Shown here piece by piece: positions 1 to 7,271 of a stretch of DNA of 7,271 bases. A program made the position numbers and the translations under genes. The notes beneath the pieces were generated by a model. The model worked only from the letters and a program-made list of their open reading frames with translations, ran no database searches and was not told the DNA's origin. The stretch's first letter is position 1, and every line of letters begins with the position of its first letter. Source of the stretch: a virus (lineage: Duplodnaviria; Heunggongvirae; Uroviricota; Caudoviricetes); the IMG/VR virus record IMGVR_UViG_2778261641_000002, positions 1-7,271 of that record; one strand, written 5' to 3'.

Positions 1-125
1 TTCTCGCTACCAGTGGCGCGAGCAGTTTTCTCGCTGTAACCCGCCCTGATAGCTGCCTGAGTGGCGTTTAAATCTTTCAGGTACTCACGGGCAAACAGCT
101 CTTGTTTGTCGGTGAGCTTTGCCAT
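1..125 (-). CDS. Terminase small subunit (P27/Terminase_2-like), N-terminal 41 codons only; gene continues beyond the window start
   Basis: Minus-strand translation from the ATG at 125-123 gives MAKLTDKQELFAREYLKDLNATQAAIRAGYSEKTARATGSE with no stop before the window edge. The NATQAAIRAGYS motif matches what I recall of this small-terminase family. GGAG lies about 6 nt upstream of the ATG. Confidence 0.7.
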   Translation of the reverse strand, partial: MAKLTDKQELFAREYLKDLNATQAAIRAGYSEKTARATGSE

Positions 126-350
126 TGTTGGCTCCGTTTATCCGTTAAAAGGGATATCAGTTAAGTTATCCCGTGTAGGGTATAAGCCATTGTCGAGACC
201 ATTCATTGAATGGCCTCTGCAATAACCGATGTCTTCATCAGTCCGCCACCACAAAGAATCTTTTTTGCCATAAGGCAAGAGATTCATCTTTCAGTGGCTG
301 CCAGTGTTATTTCCCCACTTACTGGCTTGGGTTGTTTCGCTGTACTGCCG

Positions 351-893
351 TTAATTAGTGAGTCCGGGGATTACGGTTTGCCCGTGCTGTTCAAGGCGTT
401 CAATTCTCGCCATTAGCTGAGGCTTCTTAATTTTTCCCCAGCGATTAAGCAGGCGACCTGACATGCTGGCAACATCCTTCTCTTTCATGTACTCCAGCAT
501 TACGGCATTTCTCTCTTCTTCAAATTGACGATGACCAACCTGAAGCATGGCGTACATCCAGTTAAATGCGTTGATGTAAGCAATTTTGATACGCATTGCT
601 TCTTTTTTGGTGTAGGACATAACCAAAAGCATCAACCCATCCTTGCGGAGACGGTAGAATTTTTGCGGCTTACCATTCTGTAACTCATTGTTTTTATAGC
701 AAAGCTCAAAGTTGAGCTTTGTATCAAACTCAGGAGGGCAAGCTTCTATGGTTCGTTCAATGTCACGAACTACGTTCTTCGGCAGCTTTCCAAATGCTTT
801 TGCCACCATAAAAGAATCTGTAACCGGATCGTTGTTTGCTACAAAAATTAGGTCTCTGAAATCTATATCGTTAACAACGGTTGGGTAGTTCAT
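351..893 (-). CDS. Rha-family phage regulatory protein (180 aa)
   Basis: ORF-track protein MNYPTVVNDIDFRDLIFVANNDPVTDSFMVAKAFGKLPKNVVRDIERTIEACPPEFDTKLNFELCY...YRLRKDGLMLLVMSYTKKEAMRIKIAYINAFNWM. This follows the pattern I recall for the Rha (Phage_pRha) domain: PVTTS..IA..FGK.H.NVLRDI ... NFE ... Y.LTKDGF.LL.M.F ... YI.AFN.ME. Start ATG at 893; the upstream AGG is spaced rather far (about 11 nt). Confidence 0.6.
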   Translation of the reverse strand: MNYPTVVNDIDFRDLIFVANNDPVTDSFMVAKAFGKLPKNVVRDIERTIEACPPEFDTKLNFELCYKNNELQNGKPQKFYRLRKDGLMLLVMSYTKKEAMRIKIAYINAFNWMYAMLQVGHRQFEEERNAVMLEYMKEKDVASMSGRLLNRWGKIKKPQLMARIERLEQHGQTVIPGLTN

Positions 894-1041
894 TGCGTCT
901 TTACCTTTTAGAAAGATGAGCCTGTTCGCACAGAAAAGCCGTCCCCGAGATGGTCGCCACCATATACGGCAATTCTCAGGCTCAGCTTTCTGAAAGACTC
1001 GGGATTGTTACGCGCTGCGATGCGCGGTTTACTGCAGATGT

Positions 1042-1065
1042 AAAAAAGCCCCGCGAATGCGAGGC
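1042..1065 (-). terminator. Candidate intrinsic terminator for minus-strand transcription, downstream of Rz/Rz1
   Basis: On the minus strand, a 7-bp stem GCCUCGC / GCGGGGC (one G-U pair) with a 4-nt loop is followed directly by UUUUUU (plus-strand A-run 1042-1047). On the plus strand the same hairpin is not followed by a T-run, so the signal is orientation-specific. Confidence 0.4.
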
Positions 1066-1239
1066 TAAATCCTGGTATTTGTAATGACTGGCTCTTATCT
1101 CAACGCAGCCCCTTACCGCGCGCAAGATGCTCAATATCAAGCATCAGCAATGAGATGTTTAATCTGGATTCACTCCAGAAGTGATCACCACCCTGTCTAC
1201 AGAGCCAGATGTGAAGGATGATGAGTAAAATTATCGCTA

Positions 1240-1707
1240 TCATCGAAGGCATTGCGTCCTGATGTATTCCTGAAGCGTTCTCAGTGCTGTTTGGTCGCGG
1301 ATAATTCCGTCCCGGATATCGAGAACGTTTCGTCCAGCAACTGGAGAGAGTTCGACGGTGGCATCATTGCCCATGCCGGAGGCGCTGGAGGTTTTGGCTG
1401 AGGATGGCACAGGGCATTTTCCTTTGACGAGCACCCTGCCACCATTATCAAGCTTGCGCCGAAGAGCATCATTTTCAGCTTTCGCATCAGCTAACTCCTT
1501 CGTGTATTTAGCATCGAGTGCATCAGCATCACGCTGGCGCTGTTGCATGTCAGTAATGGTGGCGTTCGCCAGCTTCAGCTCACTGACTTTTTTATCGCGC
1601 TGCTCTTTGTAGGTAATGGCGTTATCACGGTAATGATTAACAGCCCATGACAGGCAGACGATGATGCAGATAACCAAAGCGGAGATAATCGCGGTTAACC
1701 GACTCAT
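1240..1707 (-). CDS. Rz: Rz-like i-spanin (inner-membrane spanin), 155 aa from the ATG at 1707
   Basis: The ORF-track reading frame 1240..1836, taken from the internal Met at 1707, begins [23 protein letters not shown] (an N-terminal transmembrane segment) followed by a charged, coiled-coil-like region ([53 protein letters not shown]). It sits just downstream of the endolysin and contains an embedded out-of-frame Rz1. The upstream extension to 1836 would overlap the endolysin and is probably not translated. Confidence 0.7.
1281..1487 (-). CDS. Rz1: Rz1-like o-spanin (outer-membrane lipoprotein) embedded in the +1 frame of Rz
   Basis: Protein [44 protein letters not shown]... has a lipobox (VAGC) and a proline-rich mature region. 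It closely resembles lambda Rz1 as I recall it (MLKLKMMLCVMMLPLVVVGC...PPPPPAW). It lies entirely inside Rz in another frame, the standard spanin architecture. Confidence 0.8.
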
Positions 1708-1795
1708 GACATCAACACTCCAACGGCCAGAAACCACGGCCACGCATCGTTGCCATTGAATGCGAGCAACGCTGCCATGAAAAAGCAAATCATGC

Positions 1796-2299
1796 TCATT
1801 GTTGCCCCCACAAACAGACTTCACGCTCAATCTCACGACGAGTCATCAGACCTTTCCATTGCTTACCGCCAGCGTATATCCAGCGACGTAGCTGGTCACA
1901 TGCGCCTTTGATATCGCCCTGGTTTATTTTGCGAAGAAGCGTCGATGTTCTGAAATTGCCAGCACCCACGTTGTAGACGAACGAGTAAAGAGCGCCGCGC
2001 GCTGTTTCCGGTATATCGACTTTGATGTACGGGTTAATTTGTCTGGCAACCGTGGCAAGGTCTTTATTCAGGAGGGCTTTGCATTCTGCTTCGGTATACG
2101 TTTTACCGAGCATGATGTCTTTTCCGGTATGTCCGTGACATACAGTCCATACACCAACAATATCTTTGTATGGTATGTAGCTGACACCTTCCAGACCATC
2201 GTTACCACTTGGTCCAGTGATTAACACAGATGCTATAGCAATAGCCCCGCCACTTATCGCCGCTATTACGCTATTTCGTAGTGCCGGTGACATTGCCAT
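1796..2299 (-). CDS. SAR endolysin (T4-lysozyme-like muramidase with N-terminal signal-arrest-release domain), 167 aa
   Basis: Protein [59 protein letters not shown]... has a Gly/Ala-rich weakly hydrophobic N-terminal segment typical of SAR domains, then the E...D...T catalytic arrangement (LEG..Y.D..G.WT.C.GHT) of phage lysozymes. GAGGA lies 8 nt upstream of the ATG at 2299. The start overlaps the holin 3' end by 29 nt. Confidence 0.85.
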
Positions 2300-2474
2300 T
2301 CAATCTGTCCTCGCGCTCTTTGCGCTTGTAGTACCAGTTGATGCCAAATGTGCCGACAGTACAAAGAATACCAATGATGACAGCCCAGTCATTCAGGGAG
2401 AGAATGCCACCCATCGCAGTCAGTCCTCCGAAGCTGTAACTGAACCATTCTCTGATTTTGTCCATACGGTACAT
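2271..2474 (-). CDS. Class II holin, possibly pinholin-like, with dual start (Met1-Tyr-Arg-Met4), 67 aa
   Basis: Protein [58 protein letters not shown] has two predicted transmembrane segments (the first glycine-rich) and a charged C-terminus. The two in-frame ATGs at 2474 and 2465 are separated by a basic residue, as in holin/antiholin dual starts. It is the first gene of the lysis cassette, directly upstream of the SAR endolysin. Confidence 0.75.
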
Positions 2475-2480
2475 GCTCTA

Positions 2481-2496
2481 CCCCTTCATTGAGGGG
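2481..2496 (-). promoter_or_regulatory. Stem-loop overlapping the holin ribosome-binding site (possible sdi-like translational control element)
   Basis: Plus-strand CCCCT-tcattg-AGGGG gives, in the mRNA, CCCCU-caauga-AGGGG immediately 5' of UAGAGC-AUG-UACCGU-AUG. The 3' arm (AGGGG) is the only purine-rich Shine-Dalgarno-like sequence for the first start. Confidence 0.3.
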
Positions 2497-2595
2497 ATTT
2501 GCTCTATTTAATTAGGAATAAGGTCGATTACTGATAGAACAAATCCAGGCTACTGTGTTTAGTAATCAGATTTGTTCGTGACCGATATGCACGGG

Positions 2596-2631
2596 CAAAA
2601 CGGCAGGAGGTTGTTAGCGCAACCTCTTGCC
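2596..2631 (-). terminator. Candidate tR'-like intrinsic terminator in the leader of the late (lysis) operon
   Basis: A 12-bp stem (GGCAGGAGGTTG 2602-2613 / CAACCTCTTGCC 2620-2631, one G-U pair) with a 6-nt loop. On the minus-strand transcript it is followed by GUUUUG (plus 2596-2601 CAAAAC). It lies about 245 nt downstream of the candidate -10 element. Confidence 0.35.
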
Positions 2632-2845
2632 ACCCGCTTTCACGAAGGTCATGCGTAGAATGCCGCAGCGTAACTATCACTGATGAATTCAGGATAGCCA
2701 GAGGCTACGGCTCAGTTTGGGTTGTGCTGTTGCTGGGCGGCGATGACGCCTGTACGCATTTGGTGATCCGGTTCTGCTTCCGGTATTCGCTTAATTCAGC
2801 ACAACGGAAAGAGCACTGGCTAACCAGGCGCGCCTACTCTTCACG

Positions 2846-2878
2846 ATTATAGACTCAATGCTCTTACCTGTTGTGCAA
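2846..2878 (-). promoter_or_regulatory. Candidate late promoter (pR'-like) just downstream of the Q-like gene
   Basis: A perfect TATAAT on the minus strand (plus 2846-2851 attata). Possible -35 elements are poor or badly spaced: TTGCAC (plus 2873-2878) has a 21-bp spacer. The call rests on position between a Q-like gene and the lysis cassette plus the consensus -10. Confidence 0.25.
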
Positions 2879-2939
2879 ATAAAAAAAGCCACCGTTGCAA
2901 CTTAAGAGTCACTAACGGCAGCTTACCTTCTAATTATGG

Positions 2940-3302
2940 CTAAATGGCTAATTGCATGTCAAGGCTTTTAACAGCAACATGCTTAACTTTCTCAACACGT
3001 TTACGCATTTTGAAAGCATTTTGCATCGGCTGGTATAAAACAAATAATGACGCTTTCAGGATGTCGTCAATTTCGTTTCTACAGGTTGCCAGTGAAGGTT
3101 TTCTCCATCCCTCGCCACCACGTCCACACATCTTGCGTGGCTTTGCAGTCGCGTGATAGTAGGATGCAATTGCTCGCTTAGATGAACCATGAGCGTAGTA
3201 GCTGAGGAGGATGCCAAAGGCTTTCTTGTCAATGTACATGACGGAATCGACGACCTGAGAAATCAACATTCCATCATCATCATTACACATTGGCCTTGTC
3301 AT
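2940..3302 (-). CDS. Q-like late antiterminator (phage-21/QuuD-type), probably N-terminally truncated; 120 aa from the ATG at 3302
   Basis: Protein [46 protein letters not shown]... aligns, from memory, with the middle of the 127-aa DLP12 QuuD-type Q protein (…[41 protein letters not shown]…), whose first ~40 residues have no counterpart here. The in-frame upstream region hits a stop 14 codons above the ATG. The position, immediately upstream of the late promoter and lysis cassette, is where Q sits in lambdoid phages. Confidence 0.4.
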
Positions 3303-4477
3303 AACTCTTCCCGATAGAGCATGATGATTGAGTCTGCGTCCTGTTCAATGCTTCCTGAATCACGCAAATCTGCGTTTGTCGGGCGTTTGTTTGGTCGCTT
3401 TTCAACATCGCGCGAAAGCTGACTCAGGGAGATAACCGGTGTTTTCAGGTCTTTCGCCATCGCCTTCAGGCTTCCGGAGATGTGGGCAATTGCGAGGTCG
3501 TTGCGGTCTGCTTTCGGCTTCTCAATCAGGCCAAGATAATCCGCCATGATGAGTGAGAGGTTTGGATTTTCCTGTTTGTGCCGTTCTGCGATTGAGCGTA
3601 TTTCTTCGACCGATAATCGCGAGGCATCGACTACCCATACATCCAAATCTGCAAGCTGACTCATGCCGTTAGCAACGCGCGCCCAGCCTTCGTCATCCAT
3701 CGCTGCAGGATTTCGCAGCACACTAACCGACATCCTCCCGGCGTTGGCAATGCTTCGCTCTGCAATCTGCAATGCGCTCATTTCCATTGAGAAAATCAAT
3801 ACCCCGCGCCGGACGTCAGAACCAGGAATAACGCGGCTTGCAACGCCTTCGGCAATCTTCAGCGCCAGTTCGGTTTTCCCCATACCAGGACGAGCAGCGA
3901 TTATCACCAGGTCTTCCGCGTTCATCCCTCCGGTGATGGCATCAAGTTCTTCAATTCCGGTCTTCAGGGTATCGGACTCTTCTCCGTTCCTCAGACGCCT
4001 GTCAAGCGTGTCAGTGTAGTCAGTAATGATTTCCCCTAACCGTACAGGTTTAACCTCGTCACGGGGCTTTCTGATGGCTGAAAGACGCTTTACAAGCTCA
4101 TCCATCGCCTGACTCGATGCGTCGATGGTTCCGCTCTGAATTGGTTCACGCATTTCATCCATGATTTCCAGCACCAGACGGCGGTGATAGTTATCCGCGA
4201 CCATTCCGGCATATCCCTTCAGGTTTGCGGCACTCGGGCAGTTTTTGCTGGTCATCAGGATTGAGGTGAAATGCTCCTCTCCGCACGCCTCGGCAACCAT
4301 CAGCGCGTCGATTAGGTTTCTGTTTCTCGCCTGCTTGCGGATAACCTCGAAGGCTCTCCGGTAGAGCGGAATTGAAAACGCTTCCGGCTCCAGCGTTGCC
4401 AGAACGTCGCTGGCGGTTGGTGTTAATCCACCAATCAGCAGGCCACCGATAACGCTCGCTTCGATATCCTGTCTCAT
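3299..4477 (-). CDS. DnaB-type replicative helicase (P22 gene 12-like), 392 aa; appears to lack about 45-50 C-terminal residues
   Basis: N-terminus [13 protein letters not shown] resembles E. coli DnaB IEAEQSVLGGLML. Walker [12 protein letters not shown] is present. The C-terminal region [46 protein letters not shown] aligns with Dna[50 protein letters not shown]..., but the ORF stops right after YREEL, whereas DnaB continues for about 49 residues including the GKQRNGP motif. The start ATG overlaps the O stop codon (ATGA). Confidence 0.85.
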
Positions 4478-5421
4478 GCAATCCCCCTGTCTGCAAACTT
4501 CCCTTCCCGTACTCCAGTTAACGAATCTTCCCTCAGCAGGTAATCAAAATCTGCCGTCCAGCCAGTGTCGTTGTCTCCGAAGTAAAACGGCTTGGCCTGA
4601 TGTACAAACGCCCTGACATACGCTCTGAAACCGTCCACGCTTGGCGTTTTCAGTTGCGGGATGATTTTCTTCAGGCGGCGTTTGCGTTTCTCGTTGACCG
4701 CAACAGCGTGTGGCAGTCTGTCACCGACTTCGGTGTTGTAGGCGTTCAGGAAGGATTCGTAGTCGATTCGTTCTGCCTTGCGACGTTCAGGTTTAACCTG
4801 CCCATCGCCGCCCCCATTGGGGGGTAGGGGGGTATTATTTATATTCTTGTTAATACCTTCTTGTTCATGATGTGCGGTTGTTTGTGCGGCTTCATGTGCG
4901 CTTTCATGTGCGGCATGTACGCTGAAAGCCGCGCCATTACTGGCTTCATCATGTGCGGCATCATGTGCGGTTGTTTGTGCGGCTTCATGTGCGGGTGAAT
5001 TGTCCATTTTTTGAGCGTATTCATGGTAATTTGTGATGGTGATCACACGACCTTTTTGCTTCTCTCCATCAATGGAGATCATCCCCTCTTTCACAAAAAC
5101 CTGAAGCATCCGCTCAACCTGATCACGGCTTGCCGGCTTGCCATGCCTGTCGCATAACTGAAGACCTAAATCAGCTGCTGTCACAACCAGTTGACCGGGT
5201 TGCAGATGCCATTCATGACCTTTGAAATTCGCTTTGTATGGCTTTCTGGCGGCATTCAGGAGAAGGTTTTCCCACAGGGTGCGAAGATAAACATCTTTCG
5301 CCCATGACTGTTTCAGAATGCTCCGGTACAACGGAATGTAACCAGTTTTCTGGTTCTCCATCCTGTTGCTCCTGCGCTCGTGTGCGGCGCTGAAATCGTA
5401 GATTTTTGCTGTATTGCTCAT
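4474..5421 (-). CDS. O: Replication initiator, lambda O-like N-terminus, 315 aa
   Basis: N-terminus [10 protein letters not shown] resembles lambda O MTNTAKILNF. The middle of the gene encodes a His/Ala-rich repeat ([41 protein letters not shown]) that coincides with a DNA iteron array, as for ori-lambda inside O. The C-terminal domain (…[29 protein letters not shown]) does not resemble lambda O, consistent with partnering a DnaB-type helicase rather than lambda P. Confidence 0.85.
4819..4860. other. AT-rich tract plus G6-TA-G6 element adjacent to the iterons (putative origin unwinding region)
   Basis: TATTATTTATATTCTTGTTAATA (4833-4855) lies directly downstream of the iterons in the O-gene sense, matching the iterons-then-AT-rich layout of ori-lambda. 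It is flanked by GGGGGGTAGGGGGG (4819-4832) and the near-palindrome CCCCCATTGGGGG (4811-4823). Confidence 0.5.
4866..4994. repeat. Iteron array of the replication origin inside the O gene: eight TGTGCGG cores at exact 12-bp spacing in two clusters of four
   Basis: Plus-strand TGTGCGG (or TGTGCGC) begins at 4871, 4883, 4895, 4907 and at 4952, 4964, 4976, 4988, with one degenerate copy TGTACGC at 4917. A 31-bp perfect direct repeat ATGTGCGGTTGTTTGTGCGGCTTCATGTGCG occurs at 4869-4899 and 4961-4991. Confidence 0.7.
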
Positions 5422-5423
5422 AA

Positions 5424-5696
5424 CTACCTGCCTTGACGAAAGACCTTAAGAACATCGTTAAACTGACTTACGGATATGTCTTCTTTGAGAAGCTTTTTCA
5501 GAAATGCGTTTGGAATTAACGTATATCCCTCCTCTTTTGGTAGAGACTGGAGCAACGCCCTCGCCTCAGCCTTCAGAAGCTCAGTTCTGGCAACTTTCAC
5601 AAAAGAGATTTGAGTTCTTTCATCAATGGAACGAAGGAAGCGCAAACGCTTAGCTTCTTTGTGTGTATCAGGTGGATTAAAGCCTTTGTTTCGCAT
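5424..5696 (-). CDS. Hypothetical protein, 90 aa, between cII and O
   Basis: The ORF-track frame 5424..5864, started at the internal ATG at 5696, gives MRNKGFNPPDTHKEAKRLRFLRSIDERTQISFVKVARTELLKAEARALLQSLPKEEGYTLIPNAFLKKLLKEDISVSQFNDVLKVFRQGR. A strong ribosome-binding site (GAGGTAA) lies 5-10 nt upstream. The gene is tightly packed: 22 nt after the cII stop, and its stop is 2 nt before the O start. I do not recognise the family. Confidence 0.5.
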   Translation of the reverse strand: MRNKGFNPPDTHKEAKRLRFLRSIDERTQISFVKVARTELLKAEARALLQSLPKEEGYTLIPNAFLKKLLKEDISVSQFNDVLKVFRQGR

Positions 5697-5718
5697 ATAA
5701 TTACCTCGTTGGATGTTG

Positions 5719-6018
5719 TTAAAAATCCATCTGGATTTGTTCAGAACGCTCGGTCTTGCACACCGGGCGTTTTTTATTGGTGATTTCATCAAGCGCATAC
5801 TTAAAAGCCCTGCTAATCGGACTGATGTCTGATGCCATTCCGAAAGCACACAAGACCGAAGCAATAAATCTCCAGTCCGTTCTGCTTATCTTCGATTCAT
5901 GACAGCCAATCATCTTTGCCAGACCGCGCTGGGTAAGCGTTGACAGGTTGATGAGTAAATCTGTTTCTGCGCGATCAACGTCGCGCTGTGATAGTTTGCT
6001 GTAACTTGTTTGTTCCAT
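5719..6018 (-). CDS. cII: cII-like transcriptional activator (lysogeny establishment), 99 aa
   Basis: The C-terminal region ...DEITNKKRPVCKTERSEQIQMDF matches lambda cII ...ILTNKKRPAATERSEQIQMEF as I recall it. A helix-turn-helix-like segment LTQRGLAKMIGCHESKISRTDWRF is present. The gene is immediately downstream of cro, as in lambda. Confidence 0.85.
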   Translation of the reverse strand: MEQTSYSKLSQRDVDRAETDLLINLSTLTQRGLAKMIGCHESKISRTDWRFIASVLCAFGMASDISPISRAFKYALDEITNKKRPVCKTERSEQIQMDF

Positions 6019-6103
6019 TTCTTAAGATTTCCAGTAGTGAATGGTTAGTTGAAAGGTATGCGTGGAAACGCATATGGCCTTAGTTGGTCAGATATCTTGG
6101 GAC

Positions 6104-6149
6104 TCGCTTTGTCAGCGACGTAGGACGAATGTCCATTGTGAAAATAGCG
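6104..6149 (-). promoter_or_regulatory. Candidate nutR-like site (boxA-like plus boxB-like hairpin) between cro and cII
   Basis: The minus-strand transcript reads CCGCUAUUUUCACAAUGGACAUUCGUCCUACG-UCGCU-GACAA-AGCGA. CGCUAUUUU resembles boxA (CGCUCUUA); UCGCU-GACAA-AGCGA is a 5-bp stem with a purine-rich pentaloop like lambda boxB (GCCCU-GAAAA-AGGGC). The position, directly 3' of cro, matches lambda nutR. The boxA-boxB spacing (about 22 nt) is longer than in lambda. Confidence 0.25.
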
Positions 6150-6156
6150 GTGTTAC

Positions 6157-6384
6157 TTATGCAGCCAGAAGGTTCTTTTTGCTTATTTCAAGCATTTCGC
6201 TTGCTTGATATTTGCCACCAGAAATCTCTTCGATTTTTGATGCGTATTTCGTTTTCCCAAAAAACTCAGTCTTAGGGAGGAAGCCGTTTTTGAGCCACTT
6301 ATAGACAGCCCTTTCGCTAACTCCACAAGCCTTCGCAACTTCAGGGATGCCGACACCTTTAATCGGCTCATCAAGATTTTGCAT
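6157..6384 (-). CDS. cro: Cro-like helix-turn-helix repressor, 75 aa from the ATG at 6384
   Basis: Protein MQNLDEPIKGVGIPEVAKACGVSERAVYKWLKNGFLPK... has a clear helix-turn-helix (IPEVAKACGVSERAVYKWLKNG). It is transcribed divergently from cI across a 78-bp operator region. AAGGA lies 7-8 nt upstream of the 6384 ATG; the ORF-track start at 6417 has no ribosome-binding site. Confidence 0.7.
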   Translation of the reverse strand: MQNLDEPIKGVGIPEVAKACGVSERAVYKWLKNGFLPKTEFFGKTKYASKIEEISGGKYQASEMLEISKKNLLAA

Positions 6385-6399
6385 AGGGATATCCTTTTT

Positions 6400-6461
6400 C
6401 GTACTTTCAGTACGCATTATGATTGAACTGAAAGTTTTTGCAAGTGCTTTAGTATCGTACT
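6400..6461. promoter_or_regulatory. Divergent immunity-region control region: three candidate operators plus pR (for cro) and pRM-like (for cI) promoter elements
   Basis: Inverted-repeat sites: CGTACtttcaGTACG (6400-6414), AACTGAAAGTT (6426-6436, which shares ACTTTCAGT in opposite orientation with the first), and AGTAtcgTACT (6451-6461, which shares CGTACT). Minus-strand pR candidate: -35 TTGCAA (6438-6443), 16-bp spacer, -10 CATAAT (6416-6421). Plus-strand TAGTAT (6450-6455) ends 7 nt before the cI ATG, and there is no Shine-Dalgarno sequence. Confidence 0.4.
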
Positions 6462-6462
6462 C

Positions 6463-7170
6463 ATGGTTCAGAATGAAAAAGTGCGCAAAGAATTCGCCCA
6501 GCGGCTAGCGCAAGCCTGTAAAGAAGCTGGTCTTGATGAACATGGTAGGGGAATGGCTATAGCCCGTGCCCTTTCTCTTTCGTCCAAAGGCGTTAGCAAA
6601 TGGTTTAATGCTGAGTCTTTACCGCGTCAGGAAAAAATGAATGCGCTTGCGAAATTTCTAAACGTTGATGTTGTTTGGCTTCAGCACGGCACTTCGTTAA
6701 ATGGAGCGAATGATGAAGATACTCTTTCATTTGTTGGCAAATTAAAAAAAGGGTTAGTGCGCGTGGTTGGTGAGGCAATTCTTGGTGTTGATGGTGCCAT
6801 CGAGATGACCGAAGAGCGCGATGGGTGGCTCAAGATTTATAGCGATGATCCAGATGCCTTTGGTCTTCGTGTGAAAGGAGACAGCATGTGGCCTAGAATA
6901 AAATCAGGAGAATATGTACTCATTGAGCCTAACACCAAAGTATTCCCGGGTGATGAGGTGTTTGTCAGAACCGTTGAAGGACACAACATGATCAAAGTTC
7001 TTGGCTATGACAGAGACGGAGAATACCAGTTTACAAGCATCAACCAGGACCATAGGCCAATAACGTTGCCTTATCATCAAGTAGCAAAGGTGGAGTATGT
7101 GGCTGGTATTCTGAAGCAATCTCGCCATCTGGATGACATCGAGGCAAGGGAGTGGCTGAAAAGTTCGTGA
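6463..7170 (+). CDS. cI: cI-type prophage repressor (N-terminal helix-turn-helix plus C-terminal LexA/S24-like autopeptidase domain), 235 aa
   Basis: The N-terminus (…RALSLSSKGVSKWFNAESLPRQEKMNALAKFLNV…) looks like a helix-turn-helix DNA-binding domain. The C-terminal domain has GDSMWP (catalytic Ser) and MIKVLG with the Lys exactly 37 residues after the Ser, the same spacing as LexA Ser119/Lys156. The gene is divergent from cro. Confidence 0.9.
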   Translation: MVQNEKVRKEFAQRLAQACKEAGLDEHGRGMAIARALSLSSKGVSKWFNAESLPRQEKMNALAKFLNVDVVWLQHGTSLNGANDEDTLSFVGKLKKGLVRVVGEAILGVDGAIEMTEERDGWLKIYSDDPDAFGLRVKGDSMWPRIKSGEYVLIEPNTKVFPGDEVFVRTVEGHNMIKVLGYDRDGEYQFTSINQDHRPITLPYHQVAKVEYVAGILKQSRHLDDIEAREWLKSS

Positions 7171-7271
7171 CTTCATCGTCACATAGCTGATAGCCAGTGG
7201 CCTGAAGAGACGTTTGGGTGATAGGAAGTAAGTTTTATGTTGACGGCACAGTCAACTTGGCATAGATTAAT

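Follow-up and report, generated by a model that had tools for sequence, protein, structure and literature searches.

A 12-bp direct-repeat array inside an O-type initiator gene is the probable iteron part of a lambdoid prophage replication origin

The DNA analysed here, referred to below as the window, is a stretch of 7,271 nucleotides (positions 1 to 7,271 of the IMG/VR virus record IMGVR_UViG_2778261641_000002, Caudoviricetes) and is the early-right region of a lambdoid prophage, encoded on the minus strand. Its O-type replication initiator gene contains, within the segment encoding the interdomain linker of the O protein, an array of eight 12-bp direct units arranged in two blocks of four. 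We consider, with a probability of about 0.8, that this array is the initiator-binding iteron part of the replication origin. This assignment, which comes from sequence comparison, is supported by the constraint observed at the DNA level, the covariation between a residue of O and a base of the repeats, the conserved geometry of the array, its co-inheritance with the N-terminal domain (N-domain) of O, and its positional equivalence to the iterons of phage HK97. The order of the elements, with the N-domain followed by the repeats, an AT-rich tract and the C-terminal domain (C-domain), matches that of ori-lambda, which also supports an origin. An earlier note, made from the letters of the window, had proposed O-binding iterons of an origin inside the O gene, and it is the comparative tests reported here that back this proposal.

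Results

Anatomy of the repeat array

The heptamer TGTGCGG is found on the plus strand, without mismatch, at positions 4871, 4883, 4907, 4952, 4964, 4976 and 4988, whereas site 4895 reads TGTGCGC, with one mismatch at the edge of the 7-mer (GCGCACA instead of the full CCGCACA in the O sense, i.e. on the minus strand of the window). The 6-mer CGCACA (O sense) is present at all eight sites. The eight 7-bp cores described in the earlier note are therefore seven exact copies and one variant, while the spacing that it gave is exact, with a period of 12 bp inside each block and a step of 45 bp from 4907 to 4952. The units are all direct, with a single orientation, and no inverted copy of the core was found. 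TGTGCGG occurs eight times in the window, compared with 0.99 expected, and none of 200 shuffled sequences reached this number. This count includes a stray full core, in the orientation of the array, at 5381-5387 on the plus strand. Read in the O sense, this copy precedes the array by about 390 bp and falls in the 5' part of the gene. As about one copy is expected in the window, the stray copy may be due to chance.

The array corresponds to nucleotides 427-555 of the 948-nucleotide gene, between the Pfam domain (aa 20-132) and the HK97-type C-domain. In frame, the unit nCC GCA CAw nnn encodes (Pro/Ala/Thr/Ser)-Ala-(His/Gln)-x, and the in-frame repeat that had been noticed in the O linker can indeed be read off the O gene as x-Ala-His/Gln-x units.

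DNA-level constraint on the core

Relatives of the N-domain were drawn from GTDB genomes, IMG/VR (where two scans gave 546 and 137 relatives) and annotated phages, which gave a comparison set of about 120 related prophages. Constraint was assessed in 14 lineages sharing the CGCACA core, with N-domain DNA less than 95% identical, comprising 96 units. Positions 3-8 of the unit (CGCACA) carry 1.85-2.0 bits, compared with less than 0.45 bits for positions 1 and 10-12. The Ala codon of the unit is GCA in 94 of the 96 units, against 20 of the 129 Ala codons of the same N-domains. In all 96 units, the first codon ends in C, whether it encodes Ala, Pro, Thr, Ser or Gly. The invariant four-fold codons of the N-domain, for their part, are near saturation (mean major third-base frequency of 0.53). 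At the population level, in 76 near-identical alleles obtained from an IMG/VR scan, the nucleotide diversity is 0.008 in the cores, 0.053 in the unit flanks, 0.052 in the spacer and 0.025 at the third positions of the N-domain. As the core bases are fixed while the residues vary, and as core diversity is low, selection acts on a DNA core of 6-8 bp and not on the peptide, the encoded linker being otherwise free to vary.

Within a locus, the flanks of matching units of cluster A and cluster B are often alike (L010, L012, L170 and the Yersinia phage described below), a pattern suggestive of conversion between blocks or of selection for blocks that match. A search for variant units paired in a fixed way across the clusters revealed neither a mirrored nor a parallel arrangement that was consistent.

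These data make it very improbable that the repeats are a mere His/Ala-rich low-complexity linker, generated by replication slippage and devoid of any DNA function. Several features would suit such a linker, namely a period divisible by three, a location between folded domains, low confidence in the model of the region, and a repeat number that varies from 3+3 to 4+4, with extra tandem copies at some loci. However, fixed core bases with varying residues are the opposite of what selection at the protein level would produce, and subfamilies that keep the geometry encode chemically unrelated peptides. Moreover, the 11-bp repeats of phage L are read in all three frames, and a synonymous change from GCA to GCG, common to all the units of a locus, tracks a residue of the DNA-binding domain.

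Covariation between the core and the O protein

The N-domain of O matches the Phage_rep_O family (PF04492) over aa 20-132, with an E-value of 3.4e-15 and a score of 56.8 bits, compared with a cut-off of 28.7. The AlphaFold2 model of this domain, built on a 42-sequence alignment, shows a helix-strand-helix-helix-hairpin order (pLDDT 80, pTM 0.70), in which a beta-hairpin wing at aa 115-129 comes after the helix at aa 99-111. The model of the full O protein, obtained from the single sequence, has a pLDDT of 39.6, with low confidence in the linker. With Foldseek, the PDB matches were weak and generic winged-helix proteins (CRP, MarR, CodY and TubR, with E-values of at least 8e-3), and a PDB search with the N-domain profile returned no solved sequence homologue. 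For this reason, helix 99-111 is designated as the predicted recognition helix on the basis of its topology in the model. The matches in protein databases were mostly short entries labelled as partial, and were used only for the model alignment and for finding a Pantoea-type relative. Many of these initiator entries comprise 100-210 residues (P0001-P0124), and assemblies may break in the repeats.

A second class of loci exhibits CG(C/A)GCA in every unit, including the synonymous GCA to GCG change, which is made in concert across the units of a locus. The residue at position 100, located at the start of the predicted recognition helix in the model, predicts the core in 40 of 40 loci: an aspartate is found with CGCACA and a histidine with CG(C/A)GCA. 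An aspartate facing an A-T pair and a histidine facing a G-C pair are chemically sensible combinations. Locus L020 combines the histidine and the CG(C/A)GCA core with an N-domain that has only members of the Asp/CGCACA type as its nearest relatives, which indicates at least two separate switches or fine-scale exchanges.

Conserved geometry and modular inheritance

With regard to more distant relatives, N-domains that are 40-50% identical carry unrelated cores (TGTCCAA, GARGTAACA, CGATRAACC and GCCGGAGG). The peptides encoded by the repeats of these subfamilies are also unrelated, being Val-Gln (VQ), Glu-Val-Thr (EVT) or Asp-Lys-Pro-Ser (DKPS), and their recognition-helix sequences differ. Yet the layout of 12, 12, (12), 45, 12, 12, (12) is kept in every subfamily examined except phage L. 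In the PAH-type loci, the two blocks are always equal, either 3+3 or 4+4 (40 of 40 loci, among L007-L020 and L157-L182), and the spacer is 33 bp long in all 40 loci parsed. Two IMG/VR loci, L126 and L154, contain three or more tandem copies of block plus spacer, with SPDEPCDKPSDNNKPSNGAALKH present three times in L126, as expected from unequal crossing-over between blocks.

One block, made up of the N-domain, the repeats and most of the AT tract (its proximal part), is inherited as a whole, and the C-domain varies. The Klebsiella phage 2b LV-2017 and the Yersinia phage vB_YenM_29.18 have the same N-domain and repeats with a different C-domain, which is about 51% identical to the C-domain of lambda O and is followed by a loader of the lambda P family (PF06992). 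The C-domain of the window, which gave no Pfam match, is near-identical to the C-terminal half of HK97 Gp54 and of ST104 gp18, and this type of C-domain is always encoded upstream of a DnaB-type helicase gene. HK97 and ST104 have the distal AT tract, the C-run and the C-domain in common with the window, the homology starting inside the AT tract, at or below window position 4848. In place of the array, they exhibit four dyad-symmetric iterons of about 20 bp, spaced by 20-24 bp. As these iterons are at the same place beside a common AT tract and C-domain, the 12-bp array occupies exactly the place of classical iterons.

The co-inheritance also bears on the identity of the protein that would bind the array. 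Plasmid and prophage centromeres such as TubR-tubC (PMC6009700) typically consist of split blocks of short direct repeats bound by a small winged-helix protein, and TubR is among the weak fold matches of the N-domain, so that a host factor or a protein of the partition type could be considered as the binder instead of O. There are, however, no partition genes in the ORF list of the window and no DnaA box (TTWTNCACA) anywhere in it. Furthermore, the core covaries with the N-domain of O and is always inherited with it, in hosts ranging from Escherichia to Yersinia, Brenneria and Sodalis. A binder other than O is thus highly unlikely.

Spacer, AT-rich tract and C/G-run

The 33-bp spacer holds a central element with the consensus CCAGYnnYGRYGCGG, in which third-codon positions are conserved too. 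It is present in 19 of 23 PAH, 16 of 23 PDEP/DKPS and 4 of 17 EVT loci, and also in phage L. As it recurs with unrelated iterons, the central element does not covary with the specificity of the initiator. An inverted repeat around it (GAAGCC...GGCTTC) is found in many lineages and is broken in others, with no convincing compensation, and was not retained.

The second block is followed in all lineages by GAACAAGAAGG and then by an A-rich tract. This AT tract adjoins cluster B in 23 of 23 lineages, with an AT content of 67-79% and A being far more common than T. In the window, the 23-bp AT run at 4833-4855 and the G6-TA-G6 element at 4819-4832 were both located where the earlier note had placed them. 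The 30-mer at 4833-4862 is the least stable duplex of the 7.3-kb window (-29.5 kcal/mol, compared with a mean of -40.5 and a standard deviation of 3.0), the least stable 40-mer is also found at the tract (4833-4866), and so is the lowest GC content of the profile.

In contrast, the view that the G6-TA-G6 element is part of the iteron element was not upheld. Preceded by CCCCC-ATT, with which it makes a short inverted repeat (CCCCC/GGGGG), this element forms a C/G-run that is 87% identical to the corresponding segment of HK97 O and of ST104 gene 18 (in the O sense, ACCCCCTTACCCCCTAACGGGGG there), whose iterons differ. It is also present in L129, which has PDEP-type iterons, and is absent from the Klebsiella and Yersinia relatives that have the same iterons and a C-domain of the lambda O type. 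Based on this distribution, the C/G-run belongs to the C-domain module and not to the iteron module. Just past the AT tract, at the place taken here by the C/G-run, lambda has a palindrome of unknown role.

The position of the AT tract is relevant to another possible role of the array, which could be bound by O and yet be mainly regulatory, acting through titration or handcuffing, blocking the transcription of the helicase gene or excluding related phages, with initiation taking place elsewhere. The iterons of lambda and of plasmids do also serve in inhibition and copy control. However, the array is immediately next to the least stable duplex of the window and, with respect to the common AT tract and C-domain, takes the place of the classical HK97 iterons. 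No other repeat cluster or comparably AT-rich tract is present within the O gene. A mainly regulatory array is therefore unlikely, although less so than the linker and the foreign binder considered above, and the regulatory and origin roles are not mutually exclusive.

Prophage context and state of this copy

The features of the window are listed in Table 1. The O gene is 98-99% identical to the O or replication-protein genes of CUS-3, JEP4, Kapi1, Gally, HF4s and TL-2011a, and dozens of Stx2a-converting phages also carry an O gene with this level of identity. The helicase encoded downstream comprises 392 aa, compared with 458 aa in CUS-3 (where the P gene is 1377 bp long), and its match to the Pfam DnaB_C profile stops at position 215 of 255. 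At window position 3295-3298, homology to intact helicase genes ends and the reading frame enters the Q fragment; the entire nin region is absent from this prophage. None of 5426 complete E. coli genomes contains the junction between the helicase gene and Q. Replication of this prophage is probably defective and, given the truncation of the helicase gene, the origin is probably intact but idle.

Several side observations were made on this region. A terminator-like hairpin of 12 pairs followed by a T-run is present at 5743-5773 on the plus strand, antisense to the 3' end of cII, and its position is that of the oop RNA terminator in lambda. The Rfam scan of the window returned no match at the gathering threshold, this hairpin included, and no sigma-70 promoter was found in the scan of 4400-5800. 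In the Stx2a phage 981509 (LC487996; L002 1611-4004), a near-identical O gene is followed by a 2394-bp gene annotated as DNA helicase, which is about 1 kb longer than the 1377-bp gene of CUS-3 and may have arisen by insertion or fusion.

Table 1 Features of the window and of its O gene. Domains and presumed functions are predictions.
Feature	Position	Strand	Basis or remarks
O-type replication initiator gene	4474-5421	-	ORF; Pfam; homologues; 315 aa, holds the whole element
N-terminal winged-helix domain of O, presumed origin-binding	5026-5364	-	Pfam and AlphaFold2; aa 20-132
Predicted recognition helix	5089-5127	-	AlphaFold2; aa 99-111; Asp100 codon at 5122-5124
Iteron cluster A, first in the O sense	4948-4995	-	Four 12-bp units; cores on the plus strand at 4988, 4976, 4964, 4952
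Inter-cluster spacer	4915-4947		33 bp; holds the central element CCAGTAATGGCGCGG (O sense)
Central element	4929-4943		Plus strand CCGCGCCATTACTGG; O sense CCAGTAATGGCGCGG
Iteron cluster B	4867-4914	-	Four 12-bp units; cores on the plus strand at 4907, 4895 (GCGCACA variant), 4883, 4871
AT-rich tract, presumed DNA-unwinding element	4833-4866		A-rich on the O-sense strand (GAACAAGAAGGTATTAACAAGAATATAAATAATA)
C/G-run element	4811-4832		Plus strand CCCCC-ATT-GGGGGG-TA-GGGGGG; encodes PLPPNGGG
C-terminal domain of O, HK97/ST104 (P22 gp18) type, presumed partner-recruiting	4474-4810	-	
DnaB-type replicative helicase gene, 3'-truncated	3299-4477	-	Pfam DnaB and DnaB_C; CUS-3 comparison
Q remnant (antiterminator)	2940-3302		Lysis genes also in the window
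cII	5719-6018		ORF list and Pfam; small ORF between cII and the O gene
cro	6157-6417		ORF list and Pfam
cI repressor	6463-7170	+	ORF list and Pfam

Discussion

What the data show are the anatomy of the array, the constraint on its core, the covariation between residue and base, inheritance as modules, and a position equivalent to that of classical iterons. Several points nevertheless weigh against assigning the array to an initiator-binding origin. The sites that lambda O binds as a dimer have a dyad, which the units described here lack, so the binding mode must differ. The likeness of the flanks of matching units in clusters A and B shows some concerted evolution, a process that, inside one genome but not between lineages, can look like conservation. 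The link between Asp or His at position 100 and A or G in the core rests on at least two events and not on many, and could reflect linkage through co-inheritance, and residue 100 is placed by a model with a pLDDT of 80 and weak fold matches. The origin of phage L, which is used below for comparison, is itself only a prediction, and the literature search found no experiment on this type of O.

Binding of O, its stoichiometry, the melting of the DNA and the recruitment of the helicase are what we infer from the observations above. It is probably by way of its recognition helix that the winged-helix N-domain recognises each 12-bp unit, residue 100 being near position 6 of the core. As the units are direct and without a dyad, one domain would bind per unit, head to tail, and the central element of the 33-bp spacer would lie between two protein-covered blocks. 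For B-DNA of 10.5 bp per turn, arithmetic gives a rotation of about 51 degrees from one unit to the next, and of about 103 degrees more for the 45-bp step. With this rotation, a bound block could not lie on one face of the helix unless the DNA were untwisted. Untwisting, or a helical path of the protein, would store strain beside the A-rich tract at 4833-4866, which would then melt, and the C-domain of O could then bring in the phage's own DnaB-type helicase.

A broader interpretation, which we put forward tentatively and regard as a possibility that is rather doubtful in its entirety, is that these loci constitute a large undescribed class of Enterobacterales prophage origins. In this class, a head-to-tail winged-helix polymer would form on two equal 12-bp blocks, with the DNA untwisted towards 12 bp per turn or the protein wound around it. 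The central element would recruit or position a further factor, and the correspondence of Asp100 or His100 with A or G would be a swappable recognition code.

The combination of N-domain, iterons and AT tract is present in 283 of 5426 complete E. coli genomes, and also in CUS-3, Kapi1 and at least 48 Stx2a-converting phages of E. coli O157. The subtypes of Stx2a phages, as defined by their replication proteins, correlate with toxin output (PMC4645166), which makes it useful to know the cis-acting origin of each type. The literature search found no account of an origin of the CUS-3/Stx2a O type or of the family-wide 12/45 geometry, the papers on the CUS-3 genome, HK620 and Sf6 being outside its scope, and no origin is annotated at this site among the phage records examined. 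The family also offers natural experiments. A single module of C-domain and AT tract is found with palindromic iterons in some phages and with 12-bp direct arrays in others, and one and the same array can have a partner of the helicase type or of the loader type. With a specificity switch of one residue and one base available in addition, the variants of this family make initiator-origin recognition and origin melting directly testable.

Comparison with known origins

An origin located inside the O gene, with iterons and an AT tract, is classical, and the 12-bp direct array in two equal blocks is a variant build. The element shares with ori-lambda its central location in the initiator gene, where it is flanked by the sequences for the N-domain (PF04492) and the partner-binding C-domain. 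In both, some of the linker is encoded by the repeats, beyond which, on the C-terminal side, comes an A-rich, easily melted tract. The origins of the Stx phages 933W and P27 are also inside gene O and have six iterons. In lambda, the iterons are four in number, of about 18-19 bp, dyad-symmetric, about 20-24 bp apart and bound by dimers of O. In contrast, the element of the window exhibits 12-bp units with a core of 6-8 bp, in two equal blocks with a fixed 33-bp spacer that has its own conserved element. The departure from ori-lambda pointed out in the earlier note is thus confirmed, with eight 12-bp direct units and no dyad. In HK97 O, ST104 gene 18 and P22 gene 18, the distal AT tract, the C-run and the C-domain are near-identical to those of the window and the partner is also a DnaB-type helicase, whereas the N-domain is of another type and the iterons are four lambda-like palindromes of about 20 bp (ATTAGCCGACTTGGCTAAT), 20-24 bp apart.

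Plasmid iteron origins (Rep_3/RepA) have iterons of 17-22 bp with a period of about 22 bp, and usually DnaA boxes. They differ in both respects from the window, whose repeats have a 12-bp period and which lacks any DnaA box. In the type III partition system TubR-tubC, a small winged-helix protein binds split blocks of direct repeats, spreads cooperatively, and both bends and unwinds the DNA (PMC6009700). However, tubC is a centromere and operator upstream of tubR, whereas the array is inside the O gene and is accompanied by no tubR-tubZ operon in the window. The likeness to TubR is a functional analogy only and does not imply homology (Foldseek E-value of about 0.07).

Among published cases, the nearest is the predicted origin of Salmonella phage L, whose gene 18 contains six imprecise 11-bp repeats (TGTCCAACGGA) that the authors named as the likely origin (PMC8022706); the site is annotated in GenBank MW013502 as rep_origin 31649-31725. 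The product, gp18, is a distant homologue of the O protein of the window (22% identity over the full length, BLASTP E-value of 3e-10), although PF04492 was not detected in it by Pfam. Both elements consist of short direct repeats without a dyad. Phage L has a 3+3 plan with a central element (CCAGTAATGACGCGG) between the blocks, followed by an N/I-rich AT tract and, downstream, a DnaB-type helicase gene. The motif CCAGTAAT-G(G/A)C-GCGG is common to the central elements of the window and of phage L. The two differ in period (11 bp in phage L, 12 bp here), in the gap between blocks (44 and 45 bp, respectively) and in the core (TGTCCAAC and CGCACA, respectively). The 11-bp period, by which the repeats of phage L come to be read in three frames, shows that repeats inside a coding sequence need not have a period that is a multiple of three.

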